A stretch of 64,000 bases of DNA from Ginglymostoma cirratum (lineage: Eukaryota). The DNA lies in assembly GCA_024137785.1 (NCBI GenBank), contig JAHRHZ010000016.1, positions 33,879,339 to 33,943,338 of the forward strand, in the 5' to 3' direction. The notes under the pieces were generated by a model that made no database searches, was not told the DNA's origin, and saw only the letters and a list, made by a program, of their open reading frames with translations. This document shows positions 13,070 to 57,730 of the stretch, in pieces; the first letter of the stretch is position 1; every line of letters begins with the position of its first letter. The translations under genes and the position numbers were made by a program.

Positions 13070-13375
13070 GAGATAAAAGGTACTGCAGATGCTGGAGAAT
13101 CCGAGATAACAAGCATGGGGCTGGATGAACACAGCAGGTCAAGCAGCATCATAGGAGCAGGAAAACTTGACGTTTCGGGCCTAAACCCTTCATCAGAAAT
13201 GGGGGAGGGGAAGAGGGTTCTGAAATAAATAGGGAGAGAGAGGGAGGCAGATAGAGGATGGATAGAGGAGAGGAGGCATTTCTGATGAAGGGTTTAGGCC
13301 CGAAACGTCAAGTTTTCCTGCTCCTATGATGCTGCTTGACCTGCTGTATTCATCCAGCCCCATGCTTGTTATCTC
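13070..13375. mobile_element. Young Penelope-derived palindrome nested in the outer element
   Basis: 99-bp arms at 13103-13201 and 13277-13375 are reverse complements with one mismatch, separated by a purine-rich spacer. Direct repeat atctccattagtagct at 13054-13069 and 13371-13386 (the right copy overlaps the arm end by 5 bp). Confidence 0.9.
13282..13309 (+). ncRNA. Minimal type I hammerhead ribozyme motif (Penelope-associated); mirror copy at 13169-13196 on -
   Basis: CUGAUGA-A-GGGU(UUAG)GCCC-GAAA-CG-UC: conserved core, extra A before helix II, ACGU palindrome in place of helix III, helix I auuu/aagu. Confidence 0.7.
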
Positions 13376-15278
13376 CATTAGTAGCTATTCACCCTCCTAC
13401 CTGGATTGTTATCCTCTCCTTTGTCTGTCCATCTGTTCTTCCCTATCTTTGGGTTCTATCCCCACCGTATCATTTATTTTTTACCCCCTCCCCAACCCTA
13501 TCTTCTGTGACATTTTCCTAGCTGTCGTCAGTTCTGAAGAAGGATCGCTAGATCCAAAACTTTAATTCTGATTTCTCTCTACAGATGCTGCCAGACCTGC
13601 TGAGCTTTTCCAGCAATTTCTGTTTTTATCCTCATTCTTTCCCGGGCCTCTATGTCCAAAAGTGTTGTTGTGAATGACACTTGTTGGTCAACAATGCCTG
13701 GGTCAGGGAGGTAGCATAGCAAAACAGGGGGACAGTGCATTTGGTTGACCAGGGATTAGGAATCCTGCAGGCCTGGGACTTGTATGTTGCATCACTGTGA
13801 GCCATGTTATTTCCCTTTAAGATCCCTCACACACTGCATCTTGCATTCCCTCCCTCCCACAAGCAGAAACACTTTGTAGCTATTTTCTTCCCTGTTGCAT
13901 TCTCTCAATTTTCAGCACAGTGAAAAGAGACAGTGAGCATGGTCAGTGGCTTACAGGTTCTATGTGATGGTGTGCCCCAAATCTGTTAGTGCCCTCCAGT
14001 GAACCCTACAGGCTTCACACCTCCCCATGTTCCTTTCCAACCTGTTTACAGAAGCCTGTGCCTGCCCATCTTTCTCCCTCCTCAGCCATGGGCATGTGAA
14101 GTAACCATGGTCATACATTTTCATGCCCTTGAAGTCAGAGTACTCCTGACAGTGGAACAAAGCACCCTACTGCATGATCCCTTTCCCATCCATGCTTTAC
14201 CTTATCCCCCCTTCACAGTTGTTATCTGCCACTTCCCCCTCAGCCTGCAGTCCCCACTCTTGAAGAATAACTTGCTGTCTCCTCCTGCCACCCTGCTTTC
14301 CCTTAGTTTCTGTGGATGGATCTGAAGGACTGACTATGGCCCACCCACTTTAACAACCAAAGAGGACAGTCCCAGACAAGAATTACCTAGATGCTTGAGT
14401 GATGGCTGTATATCATCCCAACAACATTAGCCCAACTGCCCAGACTGGCCACTGTACAGCCACAGGGCTGACTGTGACTCACTCCCCAGACTCTCAGTCT
14501 CTCATTAGACAGAGAACCCCTGACAGCAAACACCCCAATTGGACGACTGATTGTGACCAATCCCCTGGACTGGTGTCAGAGGCTGTCCTTAACCTCCCAT
14601 GCTGGGACCACCTGACTTATGATGCTTCCATGGACTTCAGTGGGGACCATGCCCCTAAGACTTTGAAACAAGGCTTCCTGCTTGCTGCACCTGCAGTGTG
14701 TTTGCCGTATAAGCTGCTGGCACATGGAGCAGCGTGAGACTGACATCGCAGACTGCCATACAACAAAGATGTATGCCCCCATGATTGAGGATTGCTGACC
14801 AGCAAGGCAAGCTGTATGATTGAGTGACTGTGCTAATTGGCACAGCAAAGTATTGAAATCATAGGCAGTGCAAACATACTGATGGGTGCTAACTGATGAG
14901 GTCTTCGAGAGTAATTGAGCAACCATGAGAGGCAACTTTGTCCAATCTATGAGCTGGGTCCCTGTCCATGCTCACAAATTGTCCCTGCAGCAGCCTTTTA
15001 ATGCTAGTTACTGGTACACACTGCAATGCAGGTCAGTGCTTTAGTAGAATCCTGCAAGTATATTGGAGAGCTACCAGGATGTCACAAGAGATTGGCAAGT
15101 GCTAGTAATCAATATTGCTGGGTGAGGCATCTGTTAAGTTGATGCCTGTGGATTGTGTCTTGAGATGCTGTTTGGTACTACACTACATACAGGCTGTATG
15201 AATCAAACAGTGAGATGAATCTACCAGGTACCCACCCTGATACCTATGTCAAGTTTTCTCAATGGCTAGCTTCTTTGG

Positions 15279-15547
15279 CATAACAAGCATGGGGCTGGAT
15301 GAACACAGCAGGTCAAGCAGCATCATAGGAGCAGGAAAACTCGACGTTTCGGGCCTAAACCCTTCATCAGAAATGGGGGAGGGGAAGAGGGTTCTGAAAT
15401 AAATAGGGAGAGAGGGGGAGGCGGATAGAAGATGGATAGATTCCCTCAGGTTTGTCCGGAGGGAGGAGGGTAACTTCTTCAGGGTAGGCATCCTTAGAAG
15501 AGGCTTCGCAGTGGGGTTAAATTTGTATCAGAGATAAAAGGTACTGC
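15279..15547 (-). mobile_element. Penelope terminal-repeat fragment with intact hammerhead core at 15343-15370 (-)
   Basis: Nearly identical to the 13103-13260 segment; gacgtttcgggcctaaacccttcatcag; ends by restarting the repeat (gagataaaaggtactgc). Confidence 0.8.
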
Positions 15548-15867
15548 TTTTTGGTTAGATAGGAAGGTGAATAATAATGGAGTGAGTTGGACCATTAATA
15601 AGGTTATTAACCAGCAATAATCTCCCATAATTCACCACACTGCTCATCAAAAGCATAAAAAGTGGTGTGAGATTCTCCCAAAGTTGAGGTCAGCCTTACT
15701 GGTCATCTTGTGCAACCTGTCACAAATCTTGCCAAAGCCCATGTTACTTAGACCACTGTAAAATTCTGCACAAAGTTTCAGTCAGGGATCTTTCATCAGG
15801 ACATGGAAATTTTAAGGAATGTAATTAGTTTTGAGCTGTGTTAAAGCCAAGAGGAAGACCAGTGATA

Positions 15868-16680
15868 CAGTGAAAAACAGTGGAGAGCCCGAGGCATGGT
15901 ATATTGGCGAAACCGTGCAGATGCTATGACATGGATGAATGGACAGCGTGCAACAATCACCAGGCAGGAATGTTCCCTCCCAGTTGGAGTACACTTCAGC
16001 AGGTAAGGACATTCAGCCTCCGATCTTTGGGTACGTATCCTCCAAGGCGGCCTTCAAGAAACACAACAACACAGAATCGCCAAGCAGAAACCAATAGCCA
16101 AGCTCCATATCCATGAATGTGGCCTCTACCGTGATATTGGGTTCATGTCGTGTTACATGTGACCCCACCATACTTCTCTATCTGTAAAATCTTCCTTACT
16201 GTCCTGTTTTGATGCCAGCACCTTGGTAAATTCTTATGATCTCTCTACATTAATTAGTTTGTAGTGTTTTGGATTACTTATTACTCTGGTTAGACCTTTG
16301 GCATGCGACTCTTCTACCTTTCATGTTATTCCAGTCAACTGGTTTGTCCGCAGTACCATTTTATTTTTAATTTTTTGTAATTATCTCTCTACCTCATTTA
16401 ATTGGATTATAGGTCATCTCTTCGCTTGCTATTCAGCTGTTGACACTTTACTCACACCGTCTGACACTCTTGACCACCGGCAGAGACCTATTATTTGGCC
16501 TGTCGACACTCCATTTTGTATGATCTTTTGATCTCTCTGCCTATTGACCTCTTTGCCTGTAAATTCTGTGCCTATGTGCTTCTCTCTCACTTCACCTGAC
16601 AAAAGAGCAATGCTACGAAAGCTGTGATATCAAATAGACCTGTTGGACTATAACCTGGTGTTGTCTGACTTCTGACATTG
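15868..16680 (+). mobile_element. Penelope-like element 3' part (GIY-YIG remnant plus terminal repeat)
   Basis: tat att ggc gaa acc = YIGET near 15899; degenerate hammerhead cac-ctgacaaaagagcaatgctacgaaagct-gtg at 16593-16626, then the cctgttggactataacctggtgttgt tail. Confidence 0.65.
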
Positions 16681-16699: not shown

Positions 16700-17250
16700 A
16701 TGGGAATAGGGCAAAAAATAAACAAAGAAACAAAAGCTATACCTGGGGCTATGCTATATGAAAGTAAAAATAAGAGACAAACCAAAAAAGACAAGTTAAA
16801 AAAATGGGCCAGAGATCATGGCCTGAAATTGCTGAACTCAGTGCTAAGTCCAGAACGGTGTAAAGCATATAATTGAAAAGTGAGATGCTGTTCCACAATC
16901 TTTTATTGAATTTCACTGGTACAGTATAGCAGACTGAGAACAGAAATGTCAGCGTGAGAGCAAAGTACAAACTTAAAATGTCAGCCACCAGAAGCTTGGG
17001 GTCATGCTTCCAGATTGAAAATAGGTGTTCTCCAATCTGCATCGAGTCATTGGTCTTCCCAATGTGCAAATTACCACATTTTGAATGGCAAATATAATAT
17101 GCATAAATTGCTGGTTCACCTGAAAGGAATGTTCAGGATCCTGGATGGTGAGGAGTGAGGCAGTAAAAGGGTAGGTAATATGCACCCTATGTTTGCATGG
17201 AATGGTGTAATGAGAAAGGGATTGGGTATTGGAGGTGACTGAGGAGTAGA
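16700..17250 (-). mobile_element. Penelope-like GIY-YIG remnant
   Basis: Minus ORF MHIGKTNDSMQIGEHLFSI resembles YIGETKxRLGDRFAEHL and parallels 50560-50700. Confidence 0.55.
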
Positions 17251-17983
17251 CCAACACTCCGTGCCCACCTGAGTAGGACTTTGTCTCTCCTCCATCCTCC
17301 AAGGGAGGACTGAACACAGTTGATCCTACCTCTAGCCCTTCTCGTACATACTTGTGCTTTGGTCCACACTGTAGCCACCTGATCTAAATGCTTGGGACAT
17401 TGAGGGTGAAGGAATCGGTTTCCTTTCTCTGAGCTTCGCTACTGTGAGAGACATACAAAGTGATTACGGGAGATTGGCTTGAAGAGCTGTAACATCTGCA
17501 GAACTGAAACTTCCCCAGTGAGACTTGGTTTCAATTTGCTGTCAGACAGAGTGGAGTGCAACACACCAACTTGCTGAATGCATTCAGTACCATTTCCACC
17601 ATGAATGTGCATCCCACATTTCCCAACGTTTGCTTGTTCTGCAACCGTCAAGACGTTCATGACTTCCTCCTCCACTGTGGTGATAATGTGAAGATAGGGA
17701 ACCTGCCTGCAGTCTTTGCACTGTCCCGGCATTGTGTGAATGTTTGTCTTCTAAGGAAAAAAAAGAGATAAATGGCATTGCTGTCCTCTGTGCTGGTTGC
17801 TCCTATGTTCAATAAAAGCTACATGACTGAATTGTTACAGGTTCTTAGCCATTTTGAGCCATTCTGAGACTCAGAGTAGCCTGTGCACATCCTGTTCCCA
17901 TATTTAGGAGCAACATTCACCCCGAGATTCCTGAATATCCAGAAGCCTATGCTGAGAGTTGAGGCGTATACTCACCTTGCCAG

Positions 17984-18219: not shown

Positions 18220-18780
18220 GCCAGAATCTTATTCTACATTGGATCGAATCTATATACACCATTTTCTTGCATCTGACTGTCAACTAGCCCCAACCAGGTT
18301 TGTTTAGTCTGGTTGAGTGGACTCATCCTTCCCTGAAGGAAAAGAACCTTCCTCCTCTCATTTACAGAATTAAAGCGGCCTTCCAGGTCCACATTCAGAA
18401 GTCAGATGCTGCCCTGTTCTTGTTCCAGGCCTTTGCCTTTCTTCAGACATTCCATGACTTTCTCAGTCTATGTGAAACAGTGAAATGGCAGCCACTCACC
18501 TGCTCTAGTTAAATATGGCCCACACTTGAACAGTCCTGCCTACATTCTCTTCCCTGTACCTGTTAAGTCACTGCCAAACCTATCTCCCAGCCAAATAAGA
18601 GTGCTTGCCAGTCAAAATTAGGGTGCTGATCTAACTTCCATTTCCTGCCCATCCAAGGAAAATCCTGCCTAACAGTCTCAGTTTTTCTCACCAAAGATGG
18701 CCAACTGAATAAGGTACTAAAATCAACCATCTTTTCTGGAACTTTTTTCCTACAAGAAGTAAAAATGTCTAGCAAAGAAA

Positions 18781-20644
18781 TTCTTGGAGAAGCTGGTACA
18801 GTGATTGCTGGGCCCCTTGCTGAGATACTCATATTATTGATAGCTACAGGTGAGGTGCCGGAAGCATGGAGGTTGGCTTATGTGGTGCCAATATTTAAGA
18901 AAGGTGGTAAGGGAAAGCCAGGGAACTGTAGACTGGCAAGACTGACATCAGCGGTGGGCAAGTTGTTGGAGGAGATCCTAAGGGTCAGGGTTTACCTGTA
19001 TTTGGAAAGGCAGCAATTGATTAGGGATAGTCAATATGGCTTTGTGCATGGGAAATCGTGTCTCACGAACTTAATTGAGTTTTTTTGAAGAAGTAACAAG
19101 GAGGATTGATGAAGGCAGAGTGGTGGACATGATCTATATGGACTTCAGTAAAACTTTTGACATTCTGCTTGACAAGGTTAGATCACAAGGAATACAGGGA
19201 GAACTGGATACAGAACTGGCTGAAGGTAGGTGAAAAAGAGTGGTAGTGGAGAGTTGCTTTTCAGGCCGGAGGCCTGTGACCAGGGGTGTGCCACTAGGAT
19301 CGGTGCTGGGTCCACTGCTTTTTGTCATTTATATAAATAATTTGGACATGAACATAGGAAGTATGGTTAGTACGTTTGCAGATGACAACAAACTTGATCG
19401 TGTAGTAGACAGCCAAGAAGGATATCTCAGAGTACAATGGGACTTAGATCAGATGGGATACTGAGCTAAGGAGTAGCAGATGGAGTTTAATTTAGATAAT
19501 TGTGAAGTGCTGCATTTTGGAAAGGCAAATCAGGGCAGGACTTATACACTTAATGGTAAGGTCCTGAGGTGTTTTGCTTAACAAGGAGACCTTGGAGTGC
19601 AGGTTCATATATTCTCGAAAGTAGCAGGTAGGCAGAATAGTGAAGGAGGCATTTGGTATACTTGCCTTTACTGGCCTGTGCATTGAGTATAGAGTTGGGA
19701 ATATATATTGTGGCTGTACTGGACATTGGTTAGGCCAGTTTTGAAATAATGCGTTCAGTCCTGGTTTCCCTGCTATAGGAAGGATGTTGTGAAATTTGAA
19801 AAGATTCAGAAAAGTTTTACAAGGTTGCCAGGGTTGGAGGGCTTCAGCTGTAGGGAGAGGCTGAATAGGCTGGGGCTATTTTCCTTGGAGTATCAGAGGC
19901 TGAGCAGGGACCTTAGAGAAGTTTATAAAATCATGAGGGGCGTAGATAGGGTAAATAGCCAAGATCTTTTTCCCGAGGTGGGGGAGTTCAACACTAGAGA
20001 GCCTAAGTTTAAGGTGAGAGGAGAAAGATTTAAAAGGGACCTAAGGGGCAACTTTTTCACACAGAGGATGGTGCATGTATGGAATCAGTTGTCAATGGAA
20101 GTGATGGAGGCTGGTACAATTGCAACATTTAGAGTGATACAGATATACAGGACAGAAACAACTCATCCATGTTGACCAGATATCCTAAATAAATCTTGTC
20201 CCATTTGCCAGCATTTGGCCCATATCCATCTAAACCCTTCCTATTCATATACCCATCTAGATGCCTTTTAAATGTTGTAATCATACCAGCCTCCACTACT
20301 TCCTCTGGGAGCTCATTATATACACGTACCACCCTCTGCCTGAAAAGGTTGCCCCTTAGGTCCCTTTTATATCTTACCCTTCATACTTAACCCTATGCCT
20401 TCTAGTTATGGACTCCCCCATCCCGGGGAAAAGACCTTGCCTATTTACCCTATCCATGCCATCATGATTTTATAAGCTTCTCTAAGGCCCCAAAAAGGCA
20501 TCTGGATGGATACATGAATGGGAAGGGTTTAGAGGGAAATGGACCTAATGCTGGCAAATGGGACAAGAATAATTCAGGATATCTGGCTGGCATGGACAAG
20601 TTGGACCGACGGGTCTGTTTCTATGCTGTATATCTATGACTCTA
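18781..20644 (+). mobile_element. 5'-truncated CR1-type LINE (RT domain + 3'UTR)
   Basis: ORFs WRLAYVVPIFKKG, QYGFVHGKSCLTNLIEFF, GVPLGSVLGPLLFVIYIN, FADD; ends in atgactcta. Confidence 0.9.
20131..20490 (-). mobile_element. Inverted CR1 3' end nested in the 3' end of a same-family CR1
   Basis: Minus ORF MVRVYNELPEEVVEAGMITTFKRHLDGYMNRKGL. Host is broken at acattt| and resumes at aaaaaggcatctggatgg (20491). Confidence 0.8.
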
Positions 20645-23486
20645 AAGCACAGCAGAAAAACCAGACATGTGTAAGAGAGACTTTAAAACAAAAATACAAA
20701 CAAGACATAAAGGTAATTGTATTTGCATTATATTGATTGTACAATTAATTAAATTTAACAACACGAATTTGTTACTTCTGCAAAGGAAATCCGGTATTCA
20801 CTGATAATGGAGGTTTAATGGATTTTCCTGGCTCATTTCCCAAATCCTGAACATTGAAGTCAGTCCAAAGTAAAACGATAAAGAGCAAGCAGCTTTCAGG
20901 AAGCAAGAACATTGCTCTTTTGGGACAGATTATCCTCCAGAAAAAACTTCCACTTAGTATTAGCACCAATGATAGGCATAATAAATGGCTTAATCTTAAC
21001 TTTACATACTTAAATATATTAGCACTTTGTATCTGATATAATTATATCTTATTATTCATAACAAAGCTAATTTTGTCAGTGAAGTTGGATTTTAATTCTA
21101 ATTTGAAATGAAATTAAATCACATATCAGATTTTATAAATGCCACTACTGATGGCCATGTAATACAATCCTCATATGACTGTACTGTGACAATCCAAGAC
21201 AAACTAGTATTTTAACAATTACTAGTCACTCCAGGGGTTCAATGTCATCCTAACTCTCATTGTTCACCCAGCTAAACAATGAGTATTGGTAGGCATTTAA
21301 TTGTGGCAGCACCTTATTCAAACCTTGTCCTGACTTCATCTGACGCTCGCATTTTTACTTGTCAGTTGATGATTTAAGTACTGACCACCAGATAGAGGAA
21401 GGAAAATAGATGAAAACATAGATTTGAAAAGAATGCATAAATATTAAGGCCACAATAATGGACAATATATAGATATAAGTTATACTGGGATAAAAGTAAA
21501 GTTAATGTAACATAAGAGAAGGGGTTTCTACAGAGCTGATTTCTAGATCAATTCAACAATGTGGGGAGTGCAGAGGATATATTTTTATCATAGAGTGTTA
21601 TTAGGACTAGAATATTCTGCCAGAAGCATAGGTGGAAGCAGAATCTGGGAAGAGCATAAAGAAAATTTTAAATTGGTATGGAAAGTGACTGATGTTATAC
21701 CACACAGGCTTATTTTACATTATTTTTAAGGGCCTGTGCATGATAGCCCAGCAAATGCACATTTGGTATTGTATATCGATACTGAAAAGTGGATGCCTGT
21801 GTCCAAAGGTCGAAAAGTGTAGAGGCAGTTCCCTTATTCACGTGAAGCAAACAGATACTCAGCTACTTGGTGGATAAATGAGGAGATAGCAATTCAGCTG
21901 AGTGTACCTTTTATCTCTGCACACTCTGGGTTGCTTTTCCAACAAGCCTTCTCTGGATCTACTGAAAAGCTTCAGGTTGGAAGAGACAAACGAAAGTAGA
22001 AAACTTAGGGTGTGTAGATCGTACAACTGGAAAAAGTGACGGAAACAGAAATAACTCTAGCTTTCAAAAATTAAGTGTATAAATATGAAGAAAAAATATC
22101 AAGAGTATTGGGAAAGTGTAGGGATTTGAAATAAGGAGGCACCTCCTAAAGTGAGGCAACACGGGCATTAAAGACCGAATAGCCGCCTTCTGACTGCAAA
22201 ATTCTTTGATACTTGTGCCTCTTCAGTCTAAAATTTCAAGTCACTGTCCCAACTCACAAGTGAAGAATTGGCTGCTGTTTGGGTTACTCAAGAGTTGCTG
22301 TTGTCCCAACCCTAAATTACAAAAATCCCTCAAAAACTTTAGTTGAAAGTGAGGAAAAAAAATGTTTTTTTAAAACTTCAGCAATTTATAAAATGAAAAT
22401 GCAAGTTGTAACACATTAACCTATATATCACTGAAAGTTCAGTGTGATATATTATGTATGTAAAATTAATGACTATTGTTTATAACAATGAAAGCTTTAT
22501 TTATCTCAGTTGGATGAATGCTGTCTCTGTCCGAAATATTATGAATGAACAATACTTAAGTACACAGGATCATTTTTGTTCAGTCACTGTTTCATTATAA
22601 ATCATACTGTTTGTAATAATTTAAATATATTAAACTCTTATCTGTCTTTTCTGTTGCTGTTATGGATTTGATTTAACAGCATTTCACTAAGCTCATTACT
22701 GCTATCCCCTCTGGAAAATCACGGTTCATACTCAGATGAAAAACTTGATAATATTGCAATTTTCAATACACTACACCATATACAATAACAGAGTGATTTG
22801 AGTGAGCTGTGATGTTAGGTGACTGTGTCCTCGAAATGATGGCAATGTAAGCTAGGTGCACTGAAATTCTAAAATAACTGGCAGAGAGTGCATGATAAAT
22901 TAATGTTGTCTGGCTGGGCAACATTATAGTAAATAAACAGAACTATTCTGCATGAATAATATTTAATCTACAGATATATTAACATTGGGTGAGTGAGCCA
23001 AATGAATGTTGCTTTTGTCAACAACAGGAAACTCATGGCTACATTTTACAATTTCCAATTTAAATAAATCCCTTCAAACCATTTGGTTCAGATACTGGAA
23101 GTTTGACAGAGATATACTATCCAGAAAGACTAGAACACTGCATTAATGAATTATATCAGAATTTATTTATTATGAACAATATAATAATCCATTCAATCAA
23201 ATAATTAATCAGTTTACTCAATGAACTAAAATTTGTCAACTATAACTAATTGAGTAAGAATAAAGATTAAAAAAAGCCAACAACCTCTACAAATTTGATC
23301 CTCATGCGAACAGAAAACTTTTTCTGTCCCCCAAAGGCCAACTATCTCAACAGTTCATACTGACAGGTATTTATTATCTGTGAAGAACACTGCATCTTCC
23401 TGCAATCCATGCTGACAGGAATCTTTGTTTCTGGTTCTGGCGCTATATGCACAATCTCCAAACTGACACTTTTTAGATACTCAATG

Positions 23487-24195: not shown

Positions 24196-26247
24196 TATAC
24201 CTGAATTATTTTGTTTTGGAGTGTCAGTTAGTTTGTGTACTCAACACAGTACAAATATCGGATGGGCACAAGATGGATTTTTCCATTCAAGTATATTACG
24301 AAAGCAAAGACCTTGTTGAACTTACTAAAGTGAATAGATTTTGGGCTGAATCTTAGATTTTTTTGGTTAGGTGCAAGTTGTGTCGAGTTGGTCAGTGATG
24401 TCTGGGACAGGGAGGTACACAGCCAACAAGGGGCCAATGTATTAAGATAACCAGGATGACTATGGACCCTGCAGGTCTGTGTCCCATACAATACATGGGT
24501 CTGGGTAATGTTCTTTCCTTTAAACACCCTGGTGCTTAATCACAATGGTAAGTCTTGCAGCCCCTTCCTCACGAGTCCCTCACAGGTCAAGAAATTCACC
24601 AAAGCCACTCCAAAAGTGATCTTGGCCATTTCCTTCCCCATTGCACACATTTGATTTCCCAGCCTAATGGAAAGTGACATAGAGTGAGCGATCCTTGGCC
24701 ACTGTGTGTTTACGAGCTCCAAGTTTCCAAATTCCTTTCCTTGTCACTTTTCCTGTAAACTCTATAGCCTTCACACCTCCCCAGGTCCCCAGCCAACCTG
24801 TCCATATGACCCTGCACCAGCCCAAATTTCACCCCCAGCATATGAGGTGACTGTATCACATCATACACTCACCCATCGCTTGAAGTCAGGGTACTTCTGA
24901 CTGTGGCTAAACCCAACCCTCCACCCCCACCACATGATCCTCTTTTTCACATGCTTTACTGTACATCCACTTGCAAATACTATTGCCTCCTACCCCAAAC
25001 CCACCACCCCTTCATAACTGTCATTCCTATAGCCCCCAGCCAGGGGTTCTGAAGAATAACTTGCCTGTCTCCTTCCTGTGGCAGTGGCCCCTTGTCCACA
25101 CTGGTGTCAAGCTGTTGGAGCTGCATTCATCCAGACGACTGGGGAGTATTTTATCACATTCCTAATCTGTGCCTTGCAGATGTGGCGGGCTTTAGGGAGT
25201 CAAGAGATGAGTTACCTTCTGTGGAATTTCTAGCCTCTGACTTGCTCTTGTAGCTACAGAATTTATATGATTATTTCTGTTACTGATCAGTGGTAACCCC
25301 CAGGATATTGATAGTGGGTGATTTAGCAATGGTAATTGGATGGCCATTGAATGTCAAGGCACAATGGTTAGAATCACTCTTGCAGGAGATTGTCATTGCT
25401 GGCAGTCACGTGTTGCAAATGCTTCTTGCTACTTATCAGCCCAAAACCGATATATTGTTTAGATTTCACTGCATTTGGTTATGGAGTGCTTCAATATCTG
25501 ATGTGTCACAAATTCTGCTGAATAGATATAGATAGAAATAGATATTTAAAGTTCTCTAGAAAATGGCCATATTATGTAAACCTGCGATTAGACAAAAGTC
25601 TAAAGTAGTCATTTGGTAACATTGAACTTGAGTATTGGTAGAAAAAGACATATTTTGTTGAAGCTTTTGTCTTGTATTCAGGATATCTCACAAGAAATAC
25701 AAGAAAAGGGAAATCAACATTAATACCAAATGAGAAAGAGTGCTGATTTGTGAACTTTGATTGGTAGATGCATTGCAATACAGAATGGATCAGTTCATGA
25801 TGACTAACAAATACATGCCAAGCTTTGTTAATACTTAATTCAGCGGTGTTGATGCTGATTGGTCAAGCCATTATCCTAAGAAGTGAAGCAAGGAGTGGTT
25901 TGCCACTGAAAGTCAAAGGATAATGGTTTGATTCTTTCTTGTTGGAGGTTGTCAGTTTCTCGTACTTTTGTAACACTGTTGTTATTCACCATTTGTCAGC
26001 CCAAACCTGGATATTTTCCAGGTTTTGCTGCATTTGGACATGGACTGCTTCAGTACAGTTCGATTGGTATATTATGGTCAGGTGCAGAATGAGCTCCAAT
26101 TCCTATGGTAACTTTTAGAAGCTCTTAATGAGATGGGCAAACAGCCTGGTGAATCATAAATTCTGTACTAGAATATTGCAAACCTGCCTGCATAGTTTTT
26201 TAAAATCAGATTTCCATGATGTACTAATAAAATTGAACTATATAACT

Positions 26248-26926
26248 GTTGCCCCTTGACATTCAATATCATTACATCACTAAATGCACCACCAGAAACA
26301 TCCTGGTGGCTACCATTGACCAGAAACTGCACTGAACTATCTATATCAGTACTGTGGCTACAAGAGCATGTCAGAGGCTAGGAATCATATGAGTAATTCA
26401 CCTCCTGACTCCCCAGAACTTGACCACAGGGCACAAGTCAGGGGTGTGATGGAATGCTTTCCAATTGCCTGGATGACTACAGCTCCATCAACATTCAAGA
26501 AGCTTGACACCATCCCGAACAAACCAGCTAACTTGATTGACACCATATCCACAAACATTCACTTCCTCCAACACTAATGTTTAGTAGTAGCAGTATGTAC
26601 TATCTAAGAGCACTGCAAAAATTCACCAAGCTCCTTAGAAAGCACCTAACAAATCTACAACCACTAGTATCTAGAAGGGCAAGGGCAGCAGATACATGGG
26701 AATACCACCATTTGCAAGTTCACTTCCAAATCATTCTTAGAAATAAAGTGCTGTTCATTTAATAAGACTGGATCAAAATCCTAGAATACACTCCCTAATG
26801 TCATTGTGGATCTACCTACAGAAAATGAACTGCAGTGGTTCAAGAAGTCAACTCACCACCACCTGCTCAAGGGCAATAAATACTGGCCCAGCCAGTGAAA
26901 CCCATATCACATGGATGAATAAAAAA
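26248..26926 (+). mobile_element. LINE 3' fragment (same family as 34460-36585, 61380-62075 and 63040-63385)
   Basis: RAQVRGVMECFPIAWM..KKLDTI (post-RT region) and the shared tail gggcaataaatactggcccagccag...atgaataaa. Confidence 0.7.
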
Positions 26927-39390: not shown

Positions 39391-39404
39391 CAGATGTTAT
39401 TAGC

Positions 39405-44950: not shown

Positions 44951-45102
44951 TAGGAGCAGGAAAACTTGACGTTTCGGGCCTAGACCCTTAGGCCCGAAAC
45001 ATCAAGTTTTCCTGCTCCTACGATGCTGCTTGACCTGCGGTGTTCATCCAGCCCCAAGCTTGTTATCTCGGATTCTCCAGCATCTGTAGTACCTTTTATC
45101 TC
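44951..45102. mobile_element. Penelope-derived palindrome abutting the second gap (44551-44950), probably in the UBL3 3'UTR
   Basis: taggagcaggaaaacttgacgtttcgggccta mirrors taggcccgaaacatcaagttttcctgctccta; the right arm continues to ...gtaccttttatctc. Confidence 0.8.
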
Positions 45103-46825
45103 TAATATACTAGTGATGTCTGGTAATCGGTAGAAAACTTCAATGGAATCTTTTCCCTCTAGAGGGAAATGTGCAGTAGGTACATGGGAATCCTGTCACT
45201 TGAGTTTTCTTTCAATTCCCATCATGTCATGACTTCGACTCAGTGATGAAGGATTGGTGATAACTGAAGTACTGGAACATTCTCTCTGTAACAGAGGTTA
45301 CCTTCACTGCATGGTCTGCAACTGTTTAAGGTGACGATTCATCAACAAATTCTTCAAGGGCAGTAGGAATGGGCAATAATGCAGGCCTTGGCAACACCCA
45401 TACCCCATGCAAAATTAATAACTGCATTGCTGTAACTAGACCCTATTCTAATTTTTAAAAAATGGTTTTAAACCAATGTCTGTAAATAAGAATGATAGAT
45501 CTGACTGTCATCCTAGCTGCTGAATAAGTTGTCTACAAATGCAGAAATATTTACAAGTGGGTGATCCATTTTACATGAAAGAGAAGGTGAGTACCTCATT
45601 TTGGGGAAGTGATTTAAATTACCTGCTTGTATTTGCTGCTGCAGCTAATTTGTAATCTTTGCTAACCTGATTCCATATTTAAAGTTCCACCAGTAGTTTT
45701 GTTGGTATCTGTGATCAAATCCTTCCCCAGATGGAGTCTTGCTATTCATAATGGAAGCAGTCAACCTGAGTATTTTTTTAAAAATATCCTTATTTCCCCA
45801 CTTCCCTTCCGCATCTTGTCACCAAACCCACCCATTTACGTGATGGTTGCTTCAATTTTAATTTGAGCTTAATTTCAAAAATTCTTATACCACTTTGCAT
45901 CAATGGTAATGCAATCGAAACATTAATATTTGGTGTCAGTCTTAAAAGTATGTATTATGTGAGAAGCCTTTTCGCTTGATTGTGTAAATGTATCATTTTA
46001 AATTCAGTGCCTGAACTCATTTTGAAAAGAAGAGTTAGATATCCTGGAGTACTTTGCAGAGTTGGTTTTTTTTTTTTAAAACCCTAGCTCCATGTTCATA
46101 CGAATATGAAACAGAAACTGCTTCACACTAAATTTATAGTGGAACTGTATTCTGTCTAGATTGTCAACCTGCTTTTTTGTTTTGTAGCGCAATTTTTTTG
46201 TCTAAATGTAATTTATTTTTGTAAAGAATCACCTTAATGAATAAGGAAATGTCCATCTTTGAGTTACATAGGACAGTCAATTAGTATCTGGTTTTTATCC
46301 CCTTTCTAGATTGAATTAGCAGTTTTTACATTGGATGATAGAAAGTATACAATTTCTGATGCACTTTGCAGTGGTGTAAGTGGAAGTCTATTTTGGGATC
46401 TGATCTTGCCCATTATACTTGAGGCCCGAATTGTGAAGTCCGTGACCCATTCAGCTGGACTTTTTAACCAGAACCTTCTGAAGGCCATTCAGGATAGGTA
46501 TCTGACTTTGCCAGCAATGCCTGAATCCTGTGAATTCATGAAGTAGAAACTGTAAATGTTTGGAATCTGAAATTAAAAATATGCTGATAGGCACACTCCT
46601 TCAGAATCTGAGGAAAAAGCAAATTTTGGTTTTTTTTTTTGTTTGGATACCCTTGATCCAACTGGACTGTTATTGATAAATGTATATTCATTATCTATTA
46701 AATTTTAGGATTGTTTGTTCAGCATTGTTCCATCTGACTCTCAAAATAGATTGATCCAGTTAAATCATGCCATGGCTTTTTAAAAACAAGCTGCTTTGTT
46801 GATGGCAAACTCTGCAGCAGCAATT

Positions 46826-48974: not shown

Positions 48975-51218
48975 ATTGTCTTAATTTCTCTGCCTCCCTC
49001 ACCAATTTGTACTCCTCTCCCTCTGAACTGACTGCACTCTCTTATCAGATTCAATCCTGACTTTGTCTTCAAGCCTGCTGACAAGGTAGTGTTGTTGTTA
49101 TCTGGGGTACTGACCTCTACATTGCAGATGCTGATTTTTACCAGCTCTCGGACACCGTTTCATGCCTCCCCAGACCATGACCACTGTTGGGCCTCAGGTC
49201 ATTGTGTTCACGAGTGTCACCAATCTCATTTCAGCTGGCGATTTCCCCCTGACAGCCTCCAGCTTCTATGTTTTTCCCAAAATCTACAAACATGACTGCC
49301 GAGGCAGACCTATTGTTTCTCCCTGTTCTTGCCCATGGAACTTATTTTTTTTTTCTTCCTACCCTGACTCCTTTTTTTGTGTTTTTTTTTTTTTTTTTTT
49401 TTAATCATTTTTCTCTCAGTTTGAAAATTTCCAGTGTGCAGGCTTCAGTTGCCTTCTCTTCACCATGGATGTGCAATCCCTTTTACACATCCACCCAGCA
49501 GTCTTAGGACTCCCTGCTTCTTTCTGGAAAAAGGCCTCAGCTGTATTTTCCATTTTCCATTTTCCATTTCCCACTCCTGTACTTGGCTGAGCTCGACCTC
49601 AATGAACAACTCCTTTTAACTCCTCTTGCTTTCTTCAGGTCAAAGGAGTAGCCATGGGTACCCAGATAAGTTCCAATTATGTCTGCTTCTTTGTGGGATA
49701 AATGGAGAATGTCTTGTTGCAGTTCTACTCTGGTCCTTCTCCCTAACTCTTCCTCCAGTATATCAGTGACCTCATTGCTACAGCTTCCCTCTCTCTTGTT
49801 CTGAATTTATGAAATGAATTTATCAATTTCATTTCCAATTTCCACTCCGTCCTCCCCTTCACCTGCTCCATTTCTGATTCCTCCCTTCCCTTCCTCAACA
49901 TCTGTTTCCATTTCTAGGGATAAGCTGCCACTGCTATCCATTGCAAACTCACTAGCTCCCACAGTTATCTTGACTATATACCCTCACAATTTGCTTCCTG
50001 TAAAGATTTCATCCATTCTCCCAGTTTCTGTTTCTGTTGCTACCTATTACATGGTTGCCTCAGAAACATCCACCTCTTCCTCAACTGACGGTTCCCTGTA
50101 ACTTTGGTTGATAGGGCCCTTCGACATGCTTGACCCATCTCCCGCACTTCTGCCCTCACTCCTTTCCTTCCCTCCCTCAGTGATAGGATCCCCGAGTCCT
50201 CACTCACCTCACCACACCCTTCCTCCCAGCCTCTGCGTCCAAAAAGCAGAAATGGCACTTACAGTCACTTCTAACGAGGTGCTACAGCCAGACACAAATT
50301 CCAACCCTCTTTCCCCCCCCCCCCGCCCCCAAACCTTGTCAGCATTCCTCAGGGTCTGTTCCCTTCAGGACACTCTGGTCCACTTCTGCATTCCCAACAT
50401 CTCATATCGTGTGTAATTGCAGAAGGTTTAACATGCATGTTTCCTGCCTCCATCCTCACCATCCAAAGCCTCAATCATACCTTCCAAGTGAAGCAACAAT
50501 TTGTCTGTACTTAATTTTATCCTCTAAAACAGTATTCACTGTTTGCAATGTGATCTCTACATTTGGGGGAAACAAAACACAGACTAGGTGACTGCTTTGC
50601 AGAGCACCTACGTTCTGTCTGCAAAAATAACCCTGAGCTTCCAGTTGTCTGCCACTTCAACACACTACTACCATGTTCCCTGGCCAATGTTTTTGTTCCA
50701 GCAAACTTCCATACCAGCCCAAAGCACAACATTTCATCTACCACTTAGGGGCCCTACAGCCTCTAAGACTCCACATTATATTCAATAACTTCAAGCCTGA
50801 TTCCATCCTTCTATTTTTTTTTTGCTCACCTCACACCTGGTTTGATTAATCATAGGGATAGCTTTTAGCACAGTTACCCATTCTTACATACCCCATATAA
50901 CATGGGTTGCATTCAATACACTCGTTTTCTCCTACTCTTGGCTCTTATTACTTACTCAGCTTTTCTTCTTTCCTTGCCTATTATCCATAATTTCATTGTT
51001 TACCCATCCCTTGCATCTCTCTCATGCTGTCTTGCTCTTTTGCTGTCTGGGCTGTATCTCACCTATCAGTTCACTTGCCTGCCCTAACTTCAGCTTCATT
51101 ATAGATACAACTTCTTCCGAGCTGCTAACAGACCTGATGAAGAGTCACCAAACTCGAAATTTTAACTCTGCTTTCTTCCCAAAGATGCTGAGTTTCTCCA
51201 ACAATTTCTGTTTTTGCA
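48975..51218 (+). mobile_element. Long decayed Penelope-like retroelement (RT + GIY-YIG + terminal repeat with hammerhead)
   Basis: KPADK (49071), PKIYK..GRPIVS (49277-49320), MDVQS (49465), KGVAMGT (49642), GETKHRLGDCFAEHL (50566); ctgatga-a-gagt(caccaa)actc-gaaa at 51134-51159. Confidence 0.85.
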
Positions 51219-51746
51219 TACTATCAACAAGATCTACAGCAGAAATTCATCAAGGCTCCTTAGCGCCTTCCAAATACGATAGCAGTACCATCTAGAAGAG
51301 CAACAGTAGCAGCTATGTGTGAATGCCACCACTTGTAAGTTCCCCTCCAAGTCACTCACCATCTTGACTTGGAAATAAATCAGAGTCTTTGTAGTGTTGC
51401 TAGGTCAAAGTCTTGGAACATGCACACAGACTATTGATGGTATTGAGTGTCTATCTATGCCAAATGAGCTACAGCAAGAAGGCAGCCCACTTTCTCAGCA
51501 GCTAGGAAAGCCCAATCCTGGTCCAACTAGTAAAGCCCTACTTGGCCAAATGTTTTGTCCCTGTTTGCTTATCTATCTGAAAACAAAATATCTCGAAAGC
51601 TGTTACACATGTTAGGACATGGAGAACTTGGCCTTTTTAGGGCATATGCTGACATGGCAGCAATGCTTTGAAACAAAGCTAGCTCAAGTCTATTAAGATG
51701 TCAGATAACTTGCCAATGAACCTGAGCAGTGATTTACAGTCATTTT

Positions 51747-51774
51747 CTGAAGAAGGGTCCTGACCCGAAACGTC
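51747..51774 (+). ncRNA. Minimal hammerhead motif in a Penelope terminal fragment (51741-51842)
   Basis: CUGAAGA-A-GGGU(CCUG)ACCC-GAAA-CG-UC; helix II is retained with different sequence relative to 13282-13309. Confidence 0.65.
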
Positions 51775-52971
51775 AGCTTTCCTGCTCCTCTGATGCTGCC
51801 TGGCCTGCTGTTTTCCTCCAGCTCCACATTGTGTTATTTCTCACAGCCTTAACTAATTTATTGGTGCAGCTAAATTTTAACATAAAGGGACAGATTTTCT
51901 GCCAGCATAGGTAGGAGTTTTGTATGGGTACCTTGCAGAGTCTCCATCATAGCACGTTCTGAAGAAATTACCCAGAAAACTGAATTTTCTGCTGGGGAAT
52001 TCATCTGCAATAGGCATCTCTTACTTGTGCAAGATTCTATTTACATATATTTGAGGCACCAAGAGGGTTCAATAACTGAACAAACCTCCATTTACTTTGG
52101 CAAAAGGACATCAGACAGTGATCTTTCCTCACTATGCTTTGGTCGCAGCTGCCTAAACTCCAATGTTTGTTTGTTCTTTCATACACTACTGTACGGAACC
52201 AAATTGCTTCAGTGACTATGTATATAAAGTATATCTGTATGAATAAAGTATATTTTTGAAATAAAAAAAATCTTCTACAAAAGGATTCCTTTGAAAGAAG
52301 CTTCAGCATTGAAACAGAGATGACTCCTCACTCAAGTTTGGATGTATGTAAGGTTGTTGTTGAGACAAAATAAATGCATCTTTCTTCCTGATAGTTAGAT
52401 TGACTTTGTTCCAATAGGTTTTTTTTTGTCAATGTGATAAAAGCTTTTTTACGCAAAGGAGGGAAAAAGTTGTTCTTTTGTTGAAAGCAGGTTCTTGTGA
52501 ATTAGTTCAGTGACTGACCACCACTGTGAAGAAAAAAAAGTCACCTGTCAAACCAGCTCTCGGTGGAATTTTACTCGTCCACTATTACAATAAGCTGTGA
52601 TAATAATATTTCAGGGTATCAGTGAAAAACTTTGAGGAAGAGCTGGGGGACTTCTAACCTGGGGGACTTCTAACCTAACCTTAAGGTTAGAGGGGAAAGA
52701 TTTAAAAAGGACGTGAGGGGCAGCGTTTTTACACAGAGAGGTTAGTGTGTGGAATGAACTGCTAGAGGAAGTGTTGCATGTGGGTACAGTTACAACATTG
52801 TCCTGTTGGCAACTCTGAGAATGTCACAACCACATCAGTTAGCAGTTAGAGTGGTCTGTGAATGGAAAATTGGTATAGTTCACTTAGCTACCTTTTCAAT
52901 TTTTTTGTTGATCTAATGTAAACATAACCAGCAGCAGAGCCTTGGTCTGAAGAATGGTTAATTTATTGTGC

Positions 52972-53065
52972 GATAAAACGTTGTGGAGCTGGATGAACAC
53001 AGCAGGCCAAGCAGCATCAGAGGAGCAGGAAAGTTGATGTTTCGGGTCGGGACCCTCTTCAGAAA
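52972..53065 (-). mobile_element. Penelope terminal fragment with hammerhead core at 53036-53062 (-)
   Basis: Minus strand ctgaaga-gggt(cccg)accc-gaaa-catc; 13-bp TSD taatttattgtgc at 52959-52971 and 53066-53078. Confidence 0.8.
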
Positions 53066-53814
53066 TAATTTATTGTGCAACTATTTCTGGAAAATACCAA
53101 GGGAAAATGTGATACAGTTGTTGCTGACAATACAAAGATTAAAAGGTAGATTTGGGATAAGATCAGTCAGCTACTTGCTTGAATGATAAGTTGACCAAGA
53201 ATTTTGTCAAATTGTGGTTGAATCTGACAACTCATTGTACTGCTTTTGCACCTATTGGTCACTGTATCACTGCTACAATTCTCATGTTTTCATGTGATGT
53301 TGGAAGAATTTTTGCTGTCAGGTCAGCCCCAACATAGTCGTCATTATAAAACCGTCCATTAAAATAGCAGATCATCCACCGTAGCTTCCATTCTGGGAAG
53401 GTCACTAGCTATCTCTTATCTGTGTTACTATTCCTCTGGAGCAGTGGATATACCAAATAGCATGTACAACCGCCTGTATCCCCTGAAAAAGCATCTAGAA
53501 CGTAGTTAGCAAACTGATATTTCCATTCAGCCGCATGAAATGAGTGGTATAGTTTTTATTTTCGTGCAGGTGGAGAGCTGTGCTGAGCTAATGAGTAGGC
53601 AGCCATCAGGGCATTTCAGGTTCGAGGTGTTGGGTGTTGGGAGTGGGTGAGAACATGTGAGGGAAGAGTTTGCAGGCAAATTTTCTGATTATGCAAAGAT
53701 AGAAAGGAAAGCCTCATGCCAATGACTAAGCTTACGTATTTAGGGTAATGAAGATTTTTGCCTTTGCAAATTGTAGGAAAAGCATTGTTCTCACTCTAAA
53801 CTGTGTTTAAAGTT

Positions 53815-54070
53815 TTTCAGATTTGTAGCTCGGGTTGTGGATGAGGTTGTAGACTTGCTCGCTGAGCCGGTGTGTTTGATTGCAGACGTTTCGTCACCCT
53901 GCTAGGTCTGAACTGGAGGTAATGCCAACCACTCCAGAAAATCGAGGCATATAAATAACAAGCAGGACAGAACACCGATGCTTCACTGGAGGCACACTGA
54001 TGATGTTACCTAGCAGGGTAACAAAATGTTTGCAACCAAACACACTCATTTGGCAAGCAAATATACAACT
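53815..54070. mobile_element. Fourth-family Penelope-type fold-back fragment with hammerhead-like core at 53997-54030
   Basis: tgcagacgtttcgtcaccctgctaggt mirrors acctagcagggtaacaaaatgtttgca; ctgatga-t-gttacc(tagcag)ggtaac-aaaa, while the left arm preserves GAAACGUC. Confidence 0.65.
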
Positions 54071-54716: not shown

Positions 54717-54902
54717 GAGATAGTAGGAACTGCCGGTGCTGGAGTCTGAGATAACAAGGTGTACAGCTGGATGAACACAGCATGCCAGGCAGCATCAGAG
54801 GAGCAGAAAAGCTGACGTTTCGAGTCTGGACCCTCCTTCTGAAGAGCTTTCCTGCTCCTCTGATGCTGCCTGGCCTGCTGTGTTCATCCAGCTCTACACC
54901 TA
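54717..54902. mobile_element. Penelope-derived palindromic mini-element
   Basis: Arms ggtgtacagctggatgaacacagca.. and ..tgctgtgttcatccagctctacacc; 13-bp TSD tacatgctcctga at 54704-54716 and 54903-54915. Confidence 0.85.
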
Positions 54903-57515
54903 TACATGCTCCTGAACTAAACTTACCTTTCTCATTGGACCAAGGTCATCCTCGAGTGTGGGACAGTACACAAGTACCAAGGATTAAGCCCATCAGGACT
55001 AGGGGATTTGTCATCTTTTAACTCCAGTAGTTGTTTATCAATTCACTTTTCCTGCTGAACGTAATTGTTGTAAATTCCTGCCACCTTTACACCTCCAGAA
55101 GTGCTACAACTTTAGTATGTGGGAGTTTTTGGATGCTAGTGTGATCCATGACAAATGTGTCAGCAGTATATGTTTGCAGCTTGAGGAGCTGTGGGTCAGA
55201 GTCAGTGAGATTTGCGCTGATCTGTACACATCATAACACATTAGGGAGGGAATATTTTGTGTGGATACTTTATTTTGATCAGCAATATTACAGTCCTCAA
55301 TTTTATTGATATAAGCCGCAAGAAATTTGAACCTGTAAGACAAGGGCTGACGCTCATCCACCCTCACTTATGCAATCCCCTTACTTGCCTCACTCATGGT
55401 AACACCATCCTTTCCCTCACCACAGACCAAATCAGAAGATTATATTCTAAGGGGTGTGACAACCTCCTGAAATAAACATGACGCATGGTGTACATTGCGA
55501 AACATTCAAATGGGGGAATACAGGCAGGAATACAACATTAGTAGGTGACAGCATAGTTCTCTGCAGATGAGATCAAATTATCAGACTGCTGTGTTGCTAT
55601 GTGATGCCAGGGTTCAGCCCATTTGCTCAAGGCTGGGGAGGAACTTGCTGTGAGGAGTGGATCCAGTGGTTCTGGTCTGATTATGTGCCAGTGACATAGG
55701 TGGCATTAGGAAAAAGGTTCTGCCTAGGGAGTATGAGCAGCCAGGACCAAAATTAGAAAGTGGAACATCAAGATAATCTCTGCGTTATTACTTCAGCCAT
55801 GAGCATAGTAGCAGTAGTTAAATAAAATTACAGATAAGAATGCATGACTCAAAAGATTGGTGTTTGCTTCCTGGGGCATTGGCCCCAGTACTGGGGAAAG
55901 AGAGATCTGTACTAGTAGGACAGTTTTCACCTTAACTGGGATGGATGCAGTGCTCTCGTTAGTCATATAAACTGCCGAGCTAGACAAACTTTAATATGAC
56001 GATGGATCAAGTTTCTGAAGATTAGGTAGAGAAAATAAGGAAAGACAAGGTAGCAAGAAGTGAAATGCTGATCAGAATGCAATAGGGAGGGACAGAGTGT
56101 ACAAACCTCAGAGTACAAAAAATAGATAGTACTGGTGATCACAAAAATAGTAAAAAGAACTAAAGATTCTTCATTTGAATGCATGAAATATGCTTGACTG
56201 AATATAAAAGTAAATATGTATGGTCTGACCATCATTACATGACTACACAATAGCAAAGGTAGAGATCTGAATATTCAAGGGTACATTATATTTAGGAAGG
56301 TAAAAGTAAACAGGGGAAGTTAGAAAGGTGCTCCGTTGATTAAGGATTATATTGGTACAATAAGACAGATATGAACTTAACTCTGTGAATCAGGATGTGG
56401 AATCAGTTTGGGTACAGATGAAACATAGGAAAGAAGTTACTTATGGGTAAATGTGATTTTTAGGTTTCCAAATAATGATCACATTGTAGAGTCGGGCACC
56501 CAGGCAGAAATAATAAGCACTTTTGAAAACGATATGCCTCTAAACATGGCAGATTTTAATCTGCATATAGAGTGAATAAATCAGAGTGACAAAGATAGCC
56601 TATGTGCTCCTGAACTAAGGTCATCTCTTTTAATTGTACCAAGGTCATCCTTAAATGGAGAATGCAGGAGGGTACACCAGAAACTGCACCAGACATACCT
56701 AATAATGAAATGTTGACCTGATGAACAGGATTATTTCTGTGCCAAGCAGCACAAGCAACTAATTCTGGGCTGAGTGATTCCATAACCAATGGATCAGATC
56801 TAAGCACTACAGTCCTGCGCCATCCTGTCGTGAATGACGTGCATTTAGATAAGTCACTGGATGAGGAGGCTGCACAAACTCTGTGATAGGGAAGCCCAGC
56901 ACATCAGCGCAAAAGATAAGTGCTAAGTGGATGATTCATCTTTGCCTCCTCCAGTGGTCCCTTGATAGCATTCTTCACTCCATGTGATATCAAGATAGGA
57001 TTGGAAACAATAGACACTACAAAGGCTCTGGGCCCTGACAACATTCCAGCAATAGTACTGCAGATGTGCTCCAGAACCAGATCACCCTTAGCCGAGCTGT
57101 TCTGTGCATCTACAACACTGGCATTGATACAACAATGTGGAAAATTGTCCAGGTATGTCCGGTACTCAAAAGGCATAACAAATCCTATGCAGCCAATTAA
57201 CCTCCCACAACAAAAGCAGAAATTGCTGAAATAGCTCAGCAGGTCTGGCAGCAGCTGTGGACAGAAATCAGAGTTAACATTTCAGTGATCCTTCCTCAGA
57301 ACGGTCATACTTCTGATAAATCCATTCCCAATCATCAGTAAAGTACTGTTGGAGGTTAGTCATCTCAACTCTGAGACATCTGTACAGGAGTTCCTCAGGA
57401 TAGTTTCTAAGGTCCGCTTATCTTCAGTTCCTTTGTCAATGATTTTACCTCCATCATAAGGTCAGAGTGTAACTGTAGATGATTTATCTTTCTCTTCAGT
57501 AAAACTTAGAAAAAG

Positions 57516-57730
57516 TCAGGAACAAATACAGAAGTTGCTGGAAAAACTCAGCCAGTCTGGCAGCACCTGTGAAGAAAAAATCAGAGGTAACGTTTCAGGT
57601 CCGGTGACCCTTCCTCAGAACCAGTTCAGAGGAGGGGTCACTGGACCTGAAATGTTAATTCTGATATTTTTCTTCACAGATGCCGCCAGACTGGCTGAAC
57701 TTTTCCAGCAACTTCTGTTTTTGCTCCTGA
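57516..57730. mobile_element. Penelope-derived near-perfect palindrome with back-to-back hammerhead cores
   Basis: Arms of about 105 bp centred near 57622; ctgaggaagggtcaccggacctgaaacgtt on - (57589-57618) and a degenerate mirror on + (57627-57656). Confidence 0.85.

Follow-up and report, generated by a model that had tools for sequence, protein, structure and literature searches.

Minimal type I hammerhead ribozymes (HHRs) of metazoan Penelope-like elements (PLEs) follow the consensus CUGANGAH G...C GAAAN-palindrome-NUH; as single motifs, they number in the thousands per genome in fish, in coelacanth (about 4,000), and in Xenopus (about 9,000), opposite-strand pairs 100–700 bp apart occur in Schistosoma, and their monomers were inactive and their dimers weak (PMC4209133). 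Neptune and Nematis PLEs are marked by a C-X4-CxxC (CX2-5CxxC) zinc-finger linker (PMC8557442). The ribozyme of Anolis cuts only with the element's protein, is dispensable for insertion in vitro and leaves no ends in RNA-seq (PMC11167929). Retrozymes derive from pseudo-long terminal repeats (pLTRs) and are present in one chondrichthyan (bioRxiv 10.64898/2026.07.22.740005). Apart from this preprint, whose supplements may bear on novelty, our literature search, with subscription papers and Repbase/Dfam mostly outside its scope, returned no paper on a shark PLE hammerhead, and the searchable supplement of PMC4209133 (file 1 is not searchable) names no cartilaginous fish. Here, we describe a 64,000-nt stretch of the Ginglymostoma cirratum genome (contig JAHRHZ010000016.1, positions 33,879,339–33,943,338), hereafter the window. 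Its hammerhead motifs are very probably minimal type I HHRs from the pLTRs of several shark PLE families (Neptune-type families A and B, a family C carrying a GIY-YIG remnant, and a probably Poseidon-like family D), and the copies in the window are dead-on-arrival insertions.

Both strands of the window (63.2 kb) were searched with a strict descriptor (CUGANGA, 0–1 extra nt, fully paired helix II of at least 4 bp, GAAA), with 200 dinucleotide shuffles as the null. Eight matches to core and helix II were found against a shuffle mean of 0.1 (maximum 1), and five of the eight carried the palindrome ACGU, which occurred in none of the 200 shuffles. These five intact cores have C3 at 13196(-), 13282(+), 15370(-), 51747(+), and 57618(-). 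All of them have CUGANGA...GAAA, a cut site GUC or GUU in agreement with NUH, and an extra A between A9 and 10.1. The pair G10.1-C11.1 is present in four, and only three (13196-, 13282+, and 15370-) combine G-C closure with a 4-bp helix I; 57618(-) has a G.U pair closing helix II and a mismatch in helix I, and helix I of 51747(+) is only 2 bp long. The strict match at 57427(-), lying outside every repeat family, is probably a chance match. The density of intact cores was thus 5 in 63.2 kb, or 79 per Mb (Poisson 95% interval 26–185), a figure biased upwards by the choice of the window for these motifs. With the usual genome sizes, the totals quoted above for coelacanth and Xenopus correspond to about 1–6 per Mb, counted with another descriptor.

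All 16 sites cited in the first-pass annotation of this window fall on motif copies, and the nine that it called degenerate or truncated proved to be genuine family members. Its minus-strand coordinates mark nucleotide 17, so that the matching C3 positions are 13196, 15370, 53062, and 57618. Five of its seven palindrome cores do carry ACGU, but the palindrome is lost in 51134(+) (GAAAUUUU) and in 53036(-) (C3 53062; GAAACAU, i.e., ACAU). The helix II variants that it listed (GGGU/GCCC, GGGU/ACCC, GAGU/ACUC, and GUUACC/GGUAAC) are all present; as for a helix III reduced to ACGU or AGCU, the former holds for five of the eight strict matches, but the latter was seen only in the degenerate copy 16596(+). 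Several copies had been overlooked (6057–6597, 12334–12430, 12927–12988, 30342–30454, 57209–57302, and 58457–58500).

A DNA profile of families A and B detected 24 arms at E<0.001, two weak matches being left uncounted; together with one arm of family C and two of family D, this gives 27 motif or tail arms in 19 insertions by our grouping, 8 of them inverted head-to-head (Table 1). A covariance model trained on 11 copies retrieved those and 5 further copies at E<0.001. A weak CUGAUGA site at 15799(-) (E 0.6–0.9) and a weak possible arm at 30307–30339 were not counted as copies. Two 400-N gaps, 6149–6548 and 44551–44950, each adjoin a family A arm, as expected where short-read assembly fails at hairpins. 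The motif was absent from the viral contigs scanned.

Families A and B are 70–73% identical and have a common tail; families C and D are represented by one insertion each and have no DNA similarity to A or B at E<0.05. The claim of at least four Penelope families therefore stands as four sequence groups, but A and B are related, C and D are single insertions, and D is devoid of protein evidence. The proposed reverse transcriptase (RT) plus GIY-YIG element ending in a motif (48975–51218) was confirmed by protein homology: tblastn, which served for the PLE assignment throughout, gave RT/GIY-YIG matches over 48980–50730, with a best E of 3e-41 to P0002 of Chiloscyllium punctatum, and weaker ones up to 50792. 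RT is followed by a C-terminal GIY-YIG, and the homologue P0005 has RVT_1 and GIY-YIG. The copy is frameshifted, has many stops, and starts approximately 240–300 residues into homologues of 837–899 aa; it is therefore dead and has no 5' repeat. The C-X4-CxxC linker is found in homologues P0003–P0007 and is decayed in the window copy. In family C, the motif 16596 lies ~470 nt after a C-terminal GIY-YIG piece (local tblastn E 4e-6 to P0006). The pLTR-type 3' position is thus seen directly in B (51134) and C (16596), and A is linked by the homology of its tail to that of B. Together with the agreement with the published consensus and the PLE-type insertion structures, these positions support the Penelope origin suggested by the first-pass annotation. 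In family D, stem II opens with an ATG, 28 nt upstream of the cut site; in family A, a putative ATG (15491) would lie after the tail and not in stem II. A third PLE remnant (linker/GIY-YIG, local E 5e-8) was noted at 16800–17350(-), facing the family C remnant, and no hammerhead was detected after it.

Table 1. Hammerhead-bearing insertions and related arms in the window (C3, position of the core nucleotide C3; UTR, untranslated region; ORF, open reading frame).
Feature	Positions	Strand	Remarks
Family A inverted insertion	6057–6597	.	400-N gap at expected HHR sites; 15-bp duplication with 1 mismatch
Old family B stub	12334–12430	-	Degenerate HHR
Family B inverted insertion	12927–13640	.	Tail arm 12927–12988(-); 3'UTR, degenerate HHR (C3 13534+, G12>A) and tail
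Young head-to-head inverted family A insertion	13070–13375	.	98/99 identity between arms; tail long on the left, short on the right; target duplication of 16 bp
Family A minimal HHR, intact, left arm of inverted insertion	13164–13201	-	C3 13196; predicted cut after 13169
Family A minimal HHR, intact, right arm	13277–13314	+	C3 13282; starts 5 nt before C3
Family A insertion	15282–15549	-	Distal tail end and putative ORF start (ATG 15491, predicted) joined to 70 nt 3'UTR, HHR and short tail
Family A minimal HHR, intact	15338–15375	-	C3 15370; predicted cut after 15343
Family C PLE 3' remnant (outer bounds approximate)	15850–16675	+	GIY-YIG C-terminal piece 15953–16126, 3'UTR, degenerate HHR 16596 (G8>A, AGCU)
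Family B stub	27270–27390	+	Degenerate HHR (G8>U); starts at C3
Old family B stub	30342–30454	+	Degenerate; weak inverted arm possible at 30307–30339
Family A stub lacking C3-U4	36826–36916	+	~700 nt before UBL3-like exon
Family B inverted insertion	39029–39240	.	Both HHRs degenerate/truncated; between UBL3-like exons at 37607 and 41142
Family A inverted insertion	44951–45103	.	Adjoins N gap; both arms start within HHR
5'-truncated frameshifted PLE (RT to GIY-YIG)	48975–51218	+	Protein matches 48980–50792; ends in family B HHR and tail
Terminal HHR of 48975–51218 element	51129–51168	+	C3 51134; helix II GAGU/ACUC; core retained but palindrome lost (GAAAUUUU)
Family A (subfamily A2) stub	51744–51838	+	Intact core and palindrome, 2-bp helix I; starts 3 nt before C3
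A2 stub	52972–53065	-	13-bp target duplication; palindrome lost (ACAU); starts 3–4 nt before C3
Family D inverted insertion	53808–54068	.	Degenerate HHR 53997+ (GUUACC/GGUAAC, G12>A), half HHR 53907-; 12-bp duplication with 1 mismatch
A2 inverted insertion	54717–54902	.	Target duplication of 13 bp; end of left arm 2 nt before C3, start of right arm at nucleotide 1.1
Family B stub	57209–57302	-	Helix II partly deleted
Family B inverted insertion	57505–57732	.	Intact core 57618-, U4>A copy 57627+; both arms start ~3 nt before C3
Family B tail fragment without HHR	58457–58500	+	

Target duplications were recognized at 5 of the 15 insertions examined (16, 13, 13, 15, and 12 bp, the last two with 1 mismatch each). 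The family A tail ends near +90 or +126 from C3, with one of each in inverted insertions, and one long and one short tail were present in the inverted insertions 13070, 6057, 54717, and 39029. This fits the published one-sided tail of 30–40 bp and the two start sites of reverse transcription (PMC8557442, PMC11167929). The 5' ends were scored for 25 arms with a visible end, 2 further arms lying in a gap. Eleven ends fell at -7 to +2 from C3, six inside the ribozyme (+6 to +29), two in the tail, and six at -70 or beyond; none of the 25 was located between -8 and -69. Seven of the 11 edge-starting arms are fixed by a duplication, a symmetry center or a close reference; the ends of the four solo A2/B arms may instead reflect divergence from the family sequence upstream. 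Ends lying just past the complete motif are more readily explained by the 5' end of an RNA than by a stall, and we lean slightly towards a transcript starting ~4 nt before C3. The initiator-like consensus YYANWYY, a very degenerate pattern, puts its A at -4 in three of the six copies checked. The arm 54845(+) begins at nucleotide 1.1, just past the predicted cut site, and may be either a copy of cut RNA or a deletion; snap-back self-priming was considered for the junction of its insertion (54717), which has 3 extra bases.

The insertion 15282–15549 is missing from this site in organism B, for which record 9 of X9 spans the empty site, and it is 97.5% identical to 13196(-); family A is therefore young. 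In 15440–15549(-), the distal tail and putative ORF start are directly joined to the 3'UTR, and loose ends were seen at 15440 in three runs, which suggests that this junction is particular to the 15282–15549 copy. The insertion 13070–13375 is nested in the 3'UTR of the older family B insertion, and within its 16-bp duplication lies ATT, the motif at which the Anolis enzyme preferentially cuts.

Covariation was tested on 10 distinct A and B copies against 500 shuffles; C and D were excluded as misaligned. All 40 helix II cells were paired, two of the four pairs having changed on both sides in this small sample, and 1 of 500 shuffles reached the covariation score, relatedness being uncontrolled. 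The helices of C and D are different and still paired. Helices covary between families, but much of the helix variation within families is decay and not selection. An excess of core over flank conservation, whose absence that annotation had listed among its refuting conditions, was not found within families A and B: departures in the core vs. the tail were 6/77 vs. 9/217 in A and 10/87 vs. 25/235 in B. Since the core is no better kept than the tail, the copies decay neutrally, and conservation lies between families, in the parent elements.

The motif class as such was followed in metagenome contigs, which are probably host-animal DNA, by a pattern leaving helix I unspecified; at least 120 loci (L001–L120) were found, 40 of the 120 with short flanks only. 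Among the matches listed, the 60 distinct contexts had a mean helix I pairing of 2.55 bp vs. 1.47 bp in shuffled sequences (reached by 0 of 2000), and a PLE protein match lay upstream on the same strand for 26 of 122 motifs, downstream for 1, and on the opposite strand for 2. The tails of the loci listed are unlike those of the shark families; these loci therefore test the motif class and not the shark families. Among the contigs listed, the same core was accompanied by a varied, paired helix I, often ~100 nt after the GIY-YIG end, and L006 and L046 hold inverted pairs.

For five head-to-head insertions, folding gave hairpins of -89 to -201 kcal/mol covering the motif, so that inverted arms would bury the ribozyme. 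On either strand the antisense arm is transcribed first, and thus the paired motifs cannot act as dimers; the idea of dimeric action gains nothing from the pairs of this window, which are inverted and not tandem. RNAcofold of two monomers formed no catalytic dimer, a structure that its energy model is unable to score. Apart from one arm of family D, the arms did not fold much better than their shuffled versions, and no tandem pair or direct tandem array of motif units was present in the window.

Expression was followed in polyA run X21, of which 12,895,792 records (24% of the run) were compared, at 88% likeness, with a 461-bp stretch. Matches were obtained for 34,187 records (0.27%), to one family, and they come from other copies, because the flanks had almost no depth. 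Run X22, with 25 reads, is uninformative. Summed contig depths were not taken as copy numbers. No pile-up of read starts or ends, the cut site included, was detected among the 34,187 X21 reads, this being a polyA run and not a cleavage assay. A depth drop at 15338 was rejected as a cleavage signal: it is a subfamily indel, and loose ends continue through the ribozyme. All six opposite-strand joints listed in X21 have an end at 15373–15377, 3–7 nt before C3, 139 further joints being unlisted.

Nine sense-strand adenosines (15323–15426) read as G in 10–19% of X21 reads vs. 0.03–8% of X9 contig depth, including A14 (10.4% vs. 0.03%) and A15.1 (10.5% vs. 0.35%). For 21 adenosines in 15282–15440, two subfamily differences having been dropped, the changed fraction among the positions listed was 4/6 after U, 3/4 after A, 1/6 after C, and 1/5 after G. 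This context fits the depletion of upstream G known for ADAR, and Penelope is heavily edited in a lizard (PMC5625713); editing of A14 and A15.1 is nonetheless unproven. X9 is another species represented by contigs only, and X1 shows ~2% at A14 and A15.1. Both mate directions are equal, and no matching excess of changes was seen on the other strand among the positions listed (four T>C places are unlisted), an unexplained strand asymmetry.

Several results weigh against the assignment to PLE hammerheads. No target duplication was visible at 10 of the 15 insertions examined, and the window holds no full-length element, so that no 5' pLTR with a hammerhead was seen. The Rfam search of the window gave no hammerhead match at E up to 10, and Pfam gave no match of any kind on nine read-through frames or on one further frame. 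The short frame of family D had no protein match, weak evidence at a length of 30–43 residues, and family D is placed among PLEs by its structure alone. Helix I is weak, with 67.5% of cells paired in window copies, many of which are truncated at that strand; the other four of the five whole-structure measures in the covariation test were reached by 33–72 of 500 shuffles; and for the family A monomer, the hammerhead fold comes to -4.0 kcal/mol vs. -9.3 kcal/mol for the minimum-energy fold.

On the preferred explanation, the RT-endonuclease would nick the target, as in published biochemistry, and cDNA would start inside the element RNA, at either of two sites in the tail immediately 3' of the hammerhead, and end early, most often at the ribozyme 5' edge; two cDNAs primed from opposite strands could then join head to head. 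Early-ending cDNAs would yield stubs of 90–130 bp and hairpin insertions, nearly all with the motif, which explains its density. In the parent elements, selection would act on the ribozyme, which probably needs protein or dimerization to work on element RNA; the dispersed copies most likely leave host RNA uncut.

The stubs could instead constitute a non-autonomous family resembling short interspersed elements (SINEs) or retrozymes, with its own short transcript starting from the hammerhead and copied by the PLE enzyme. The clustering of 11 of 25 arm ends at the ribozyme edge, the X21 joints, the initiator-like A at -4, and the derivation of retrozymes from pLTRs with their occurrence in a chondrichthyan (bioRxiv 10.64898/2026.07.22.740005) all speak for it. 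We consider it improbable, since autonomous element RNA starting at the hammerhead would give equal clustering, the initiator pattern is very degenerate, tandem arrays of units are missing from the window, and 6 of the 25 arms reach at least 70 nt upstream, into the 3'UTR or ORF. That ordinary repeats, such as palindromic miniature inverted-repeat transposable elements (MITEs) or SINE tails, carry the motifs as chance or non-catalytic sequence is hardly credible and largely refuted. It could draw on the best Rfam matches, which are hairpin and microRNA models below the gathering score (an identity that we rejected, those sites being inverted insertions), and on arms that, one family D arm apart, fold not much better than their shuffles; but families whose helices and tails are unrelated share the core and palindrome, the motifs lie 3' of GIY-YIG and match the published consensus (PMC4209133), and the inverted arms are asymmetric and flanked by 13–16-bp duplications, unlike the ends of MITEs.

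Quite unlikely, too, is that the intact copies are active ribozymes in host RNA, pairing via ACGU with a nearby same-strand copy and cutting or regulating host transcripts. Five intact cores are present in the window, and two of them, 15370(-) and 13196(-), lie on the same strand 2.2 kb apart; the arm 54845(+) starts as cDNA of cut RNA would, and the RNA reads also show joints ending at 15337–15341. However, X21 has no pile-up of read ends, the depth step is an indel, hairpins cover the motifs of the inverted insertions, and the cores show no excess conservation within families. All five intact cores fall outside the interval bounded by the outermost UBL3-like coding exons identified. Published minimal HHRs likewise do little on their own, as monomers or dimers (PMC4209133) or, in Anolis, without protein (PMC11167929).

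Taking PLE insertion debris as the identity of most copies, a broader and tentative picture, rather doubtful as a whole, would be that this shark holds one of the densest hammerhead populations among vertebrates, with intact cores on the order of 10^5 should the window be representative. PLE RNA would start at the ribozyme and reverse transcription in the tail, stamping out stubs and hairpins that make up ~0.3% of polyA reads and serve as Alu-like ADAR substrates edited at A14 and A15.1, and a minority of arms would record cuts in vivo. In a genome with many young copies, the in vivo role of PLE hammerheads becomes testable, since stub 5' ends record where the RNA started or was cut: most ends at the ribozyme 5' edge with a discrete minority at 1.1 would be genomic evidence for both RNA start and cleavage. 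If editing is real, the hairpins would be a major source of double-stranded RNA in sharks. Motif density, arm ends clustered at the 5' edge, and the possible editing together make a genome-wide survey worthwhile.

Other features of the window include SNRNP35, with its coding sequence in one ORF at 8507–9358(-) (91%, 90%, and 79% identity to the Carcharodon, Heptranchias, and Callorhinchus proteins, respectively, which identifies the host as a shark) and a CpG-rich stretch at ~12500–13000 that may be its promoter. A gene that we take to be UBL3-like extends over 37607–43672(+), with four coding exons found (37607–37714 and 41142–41225, Pfam Rad60-SLD_2; ~42340; 43634–43672); its first exon was not located in the window, and a CpG island was noted with it at ~27500–28000. 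A cationic amino-acid permease exon occupies 482–589(+) (Pfam AA_permease_C). Dispersed repeats at 9985–11660, 18630–20650, 26240–26930, and 61440–63390 presumably carry CR1-like RT fragments, judged by eye.

Compared with the minimal HHRs of PMC4209133, the window motifs have the same CUGANGA plus extra nucleotide, G10.1-C11.1, GAAA, palindromic 15.2-16.2 and short helix I, and likewise belong to several families per genome, mostly as single motifs on truncated PLEs; helix II of A and B is 4–5 bp long, as opposed to 7–8 bp there, and the local density in this selected window (79 per Mb, 26–185) exceeds the genome totals reported. Neptune-clade endonuclease-bearing (EN+) PLEs (PMC8557442) share RT followed by GIY-YIG, the zinc-finger linker of the nearest homologues, strong 5' truncation, insertions with an inverted 5' copy and a 30–40-bp tail at one end, and assembly gaps; unlike them, the window has no full-length or partial-tandem copy and a decayed linker, the clade being suggested by the homologue linker and not by a tree. 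With the Poseidon element PAc of Anolis (PMC11167929), the shark copies share long and short tails that match its two reverse-transcription start sites, the stem II ATG of family D (cut site 28 nt downstream, 26 in PAc) and the lack of RNA-seq reads ending at the cut site; they differ in the putative ATG of family A, located after the tail, and in being known from sequence alone. Metazoan non-LTR retrozymes (PMC7229834; bioRxiv 10.64898/2026.07.22.740005) are similarly short, non-coding, type I hammerhead repeats related to pLTRs, but they form direct tandem arrays, often with canonical hammerheads, in contrast to the solo or inverted minimal cores found here. Judged by the features that could be compared, the motifs agree with minimal HHRs and not with retrozymes. 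They extend to shark repeats an RNA class described in 2014, in an arrangement that is known, unusually dense here, and mostly dead.

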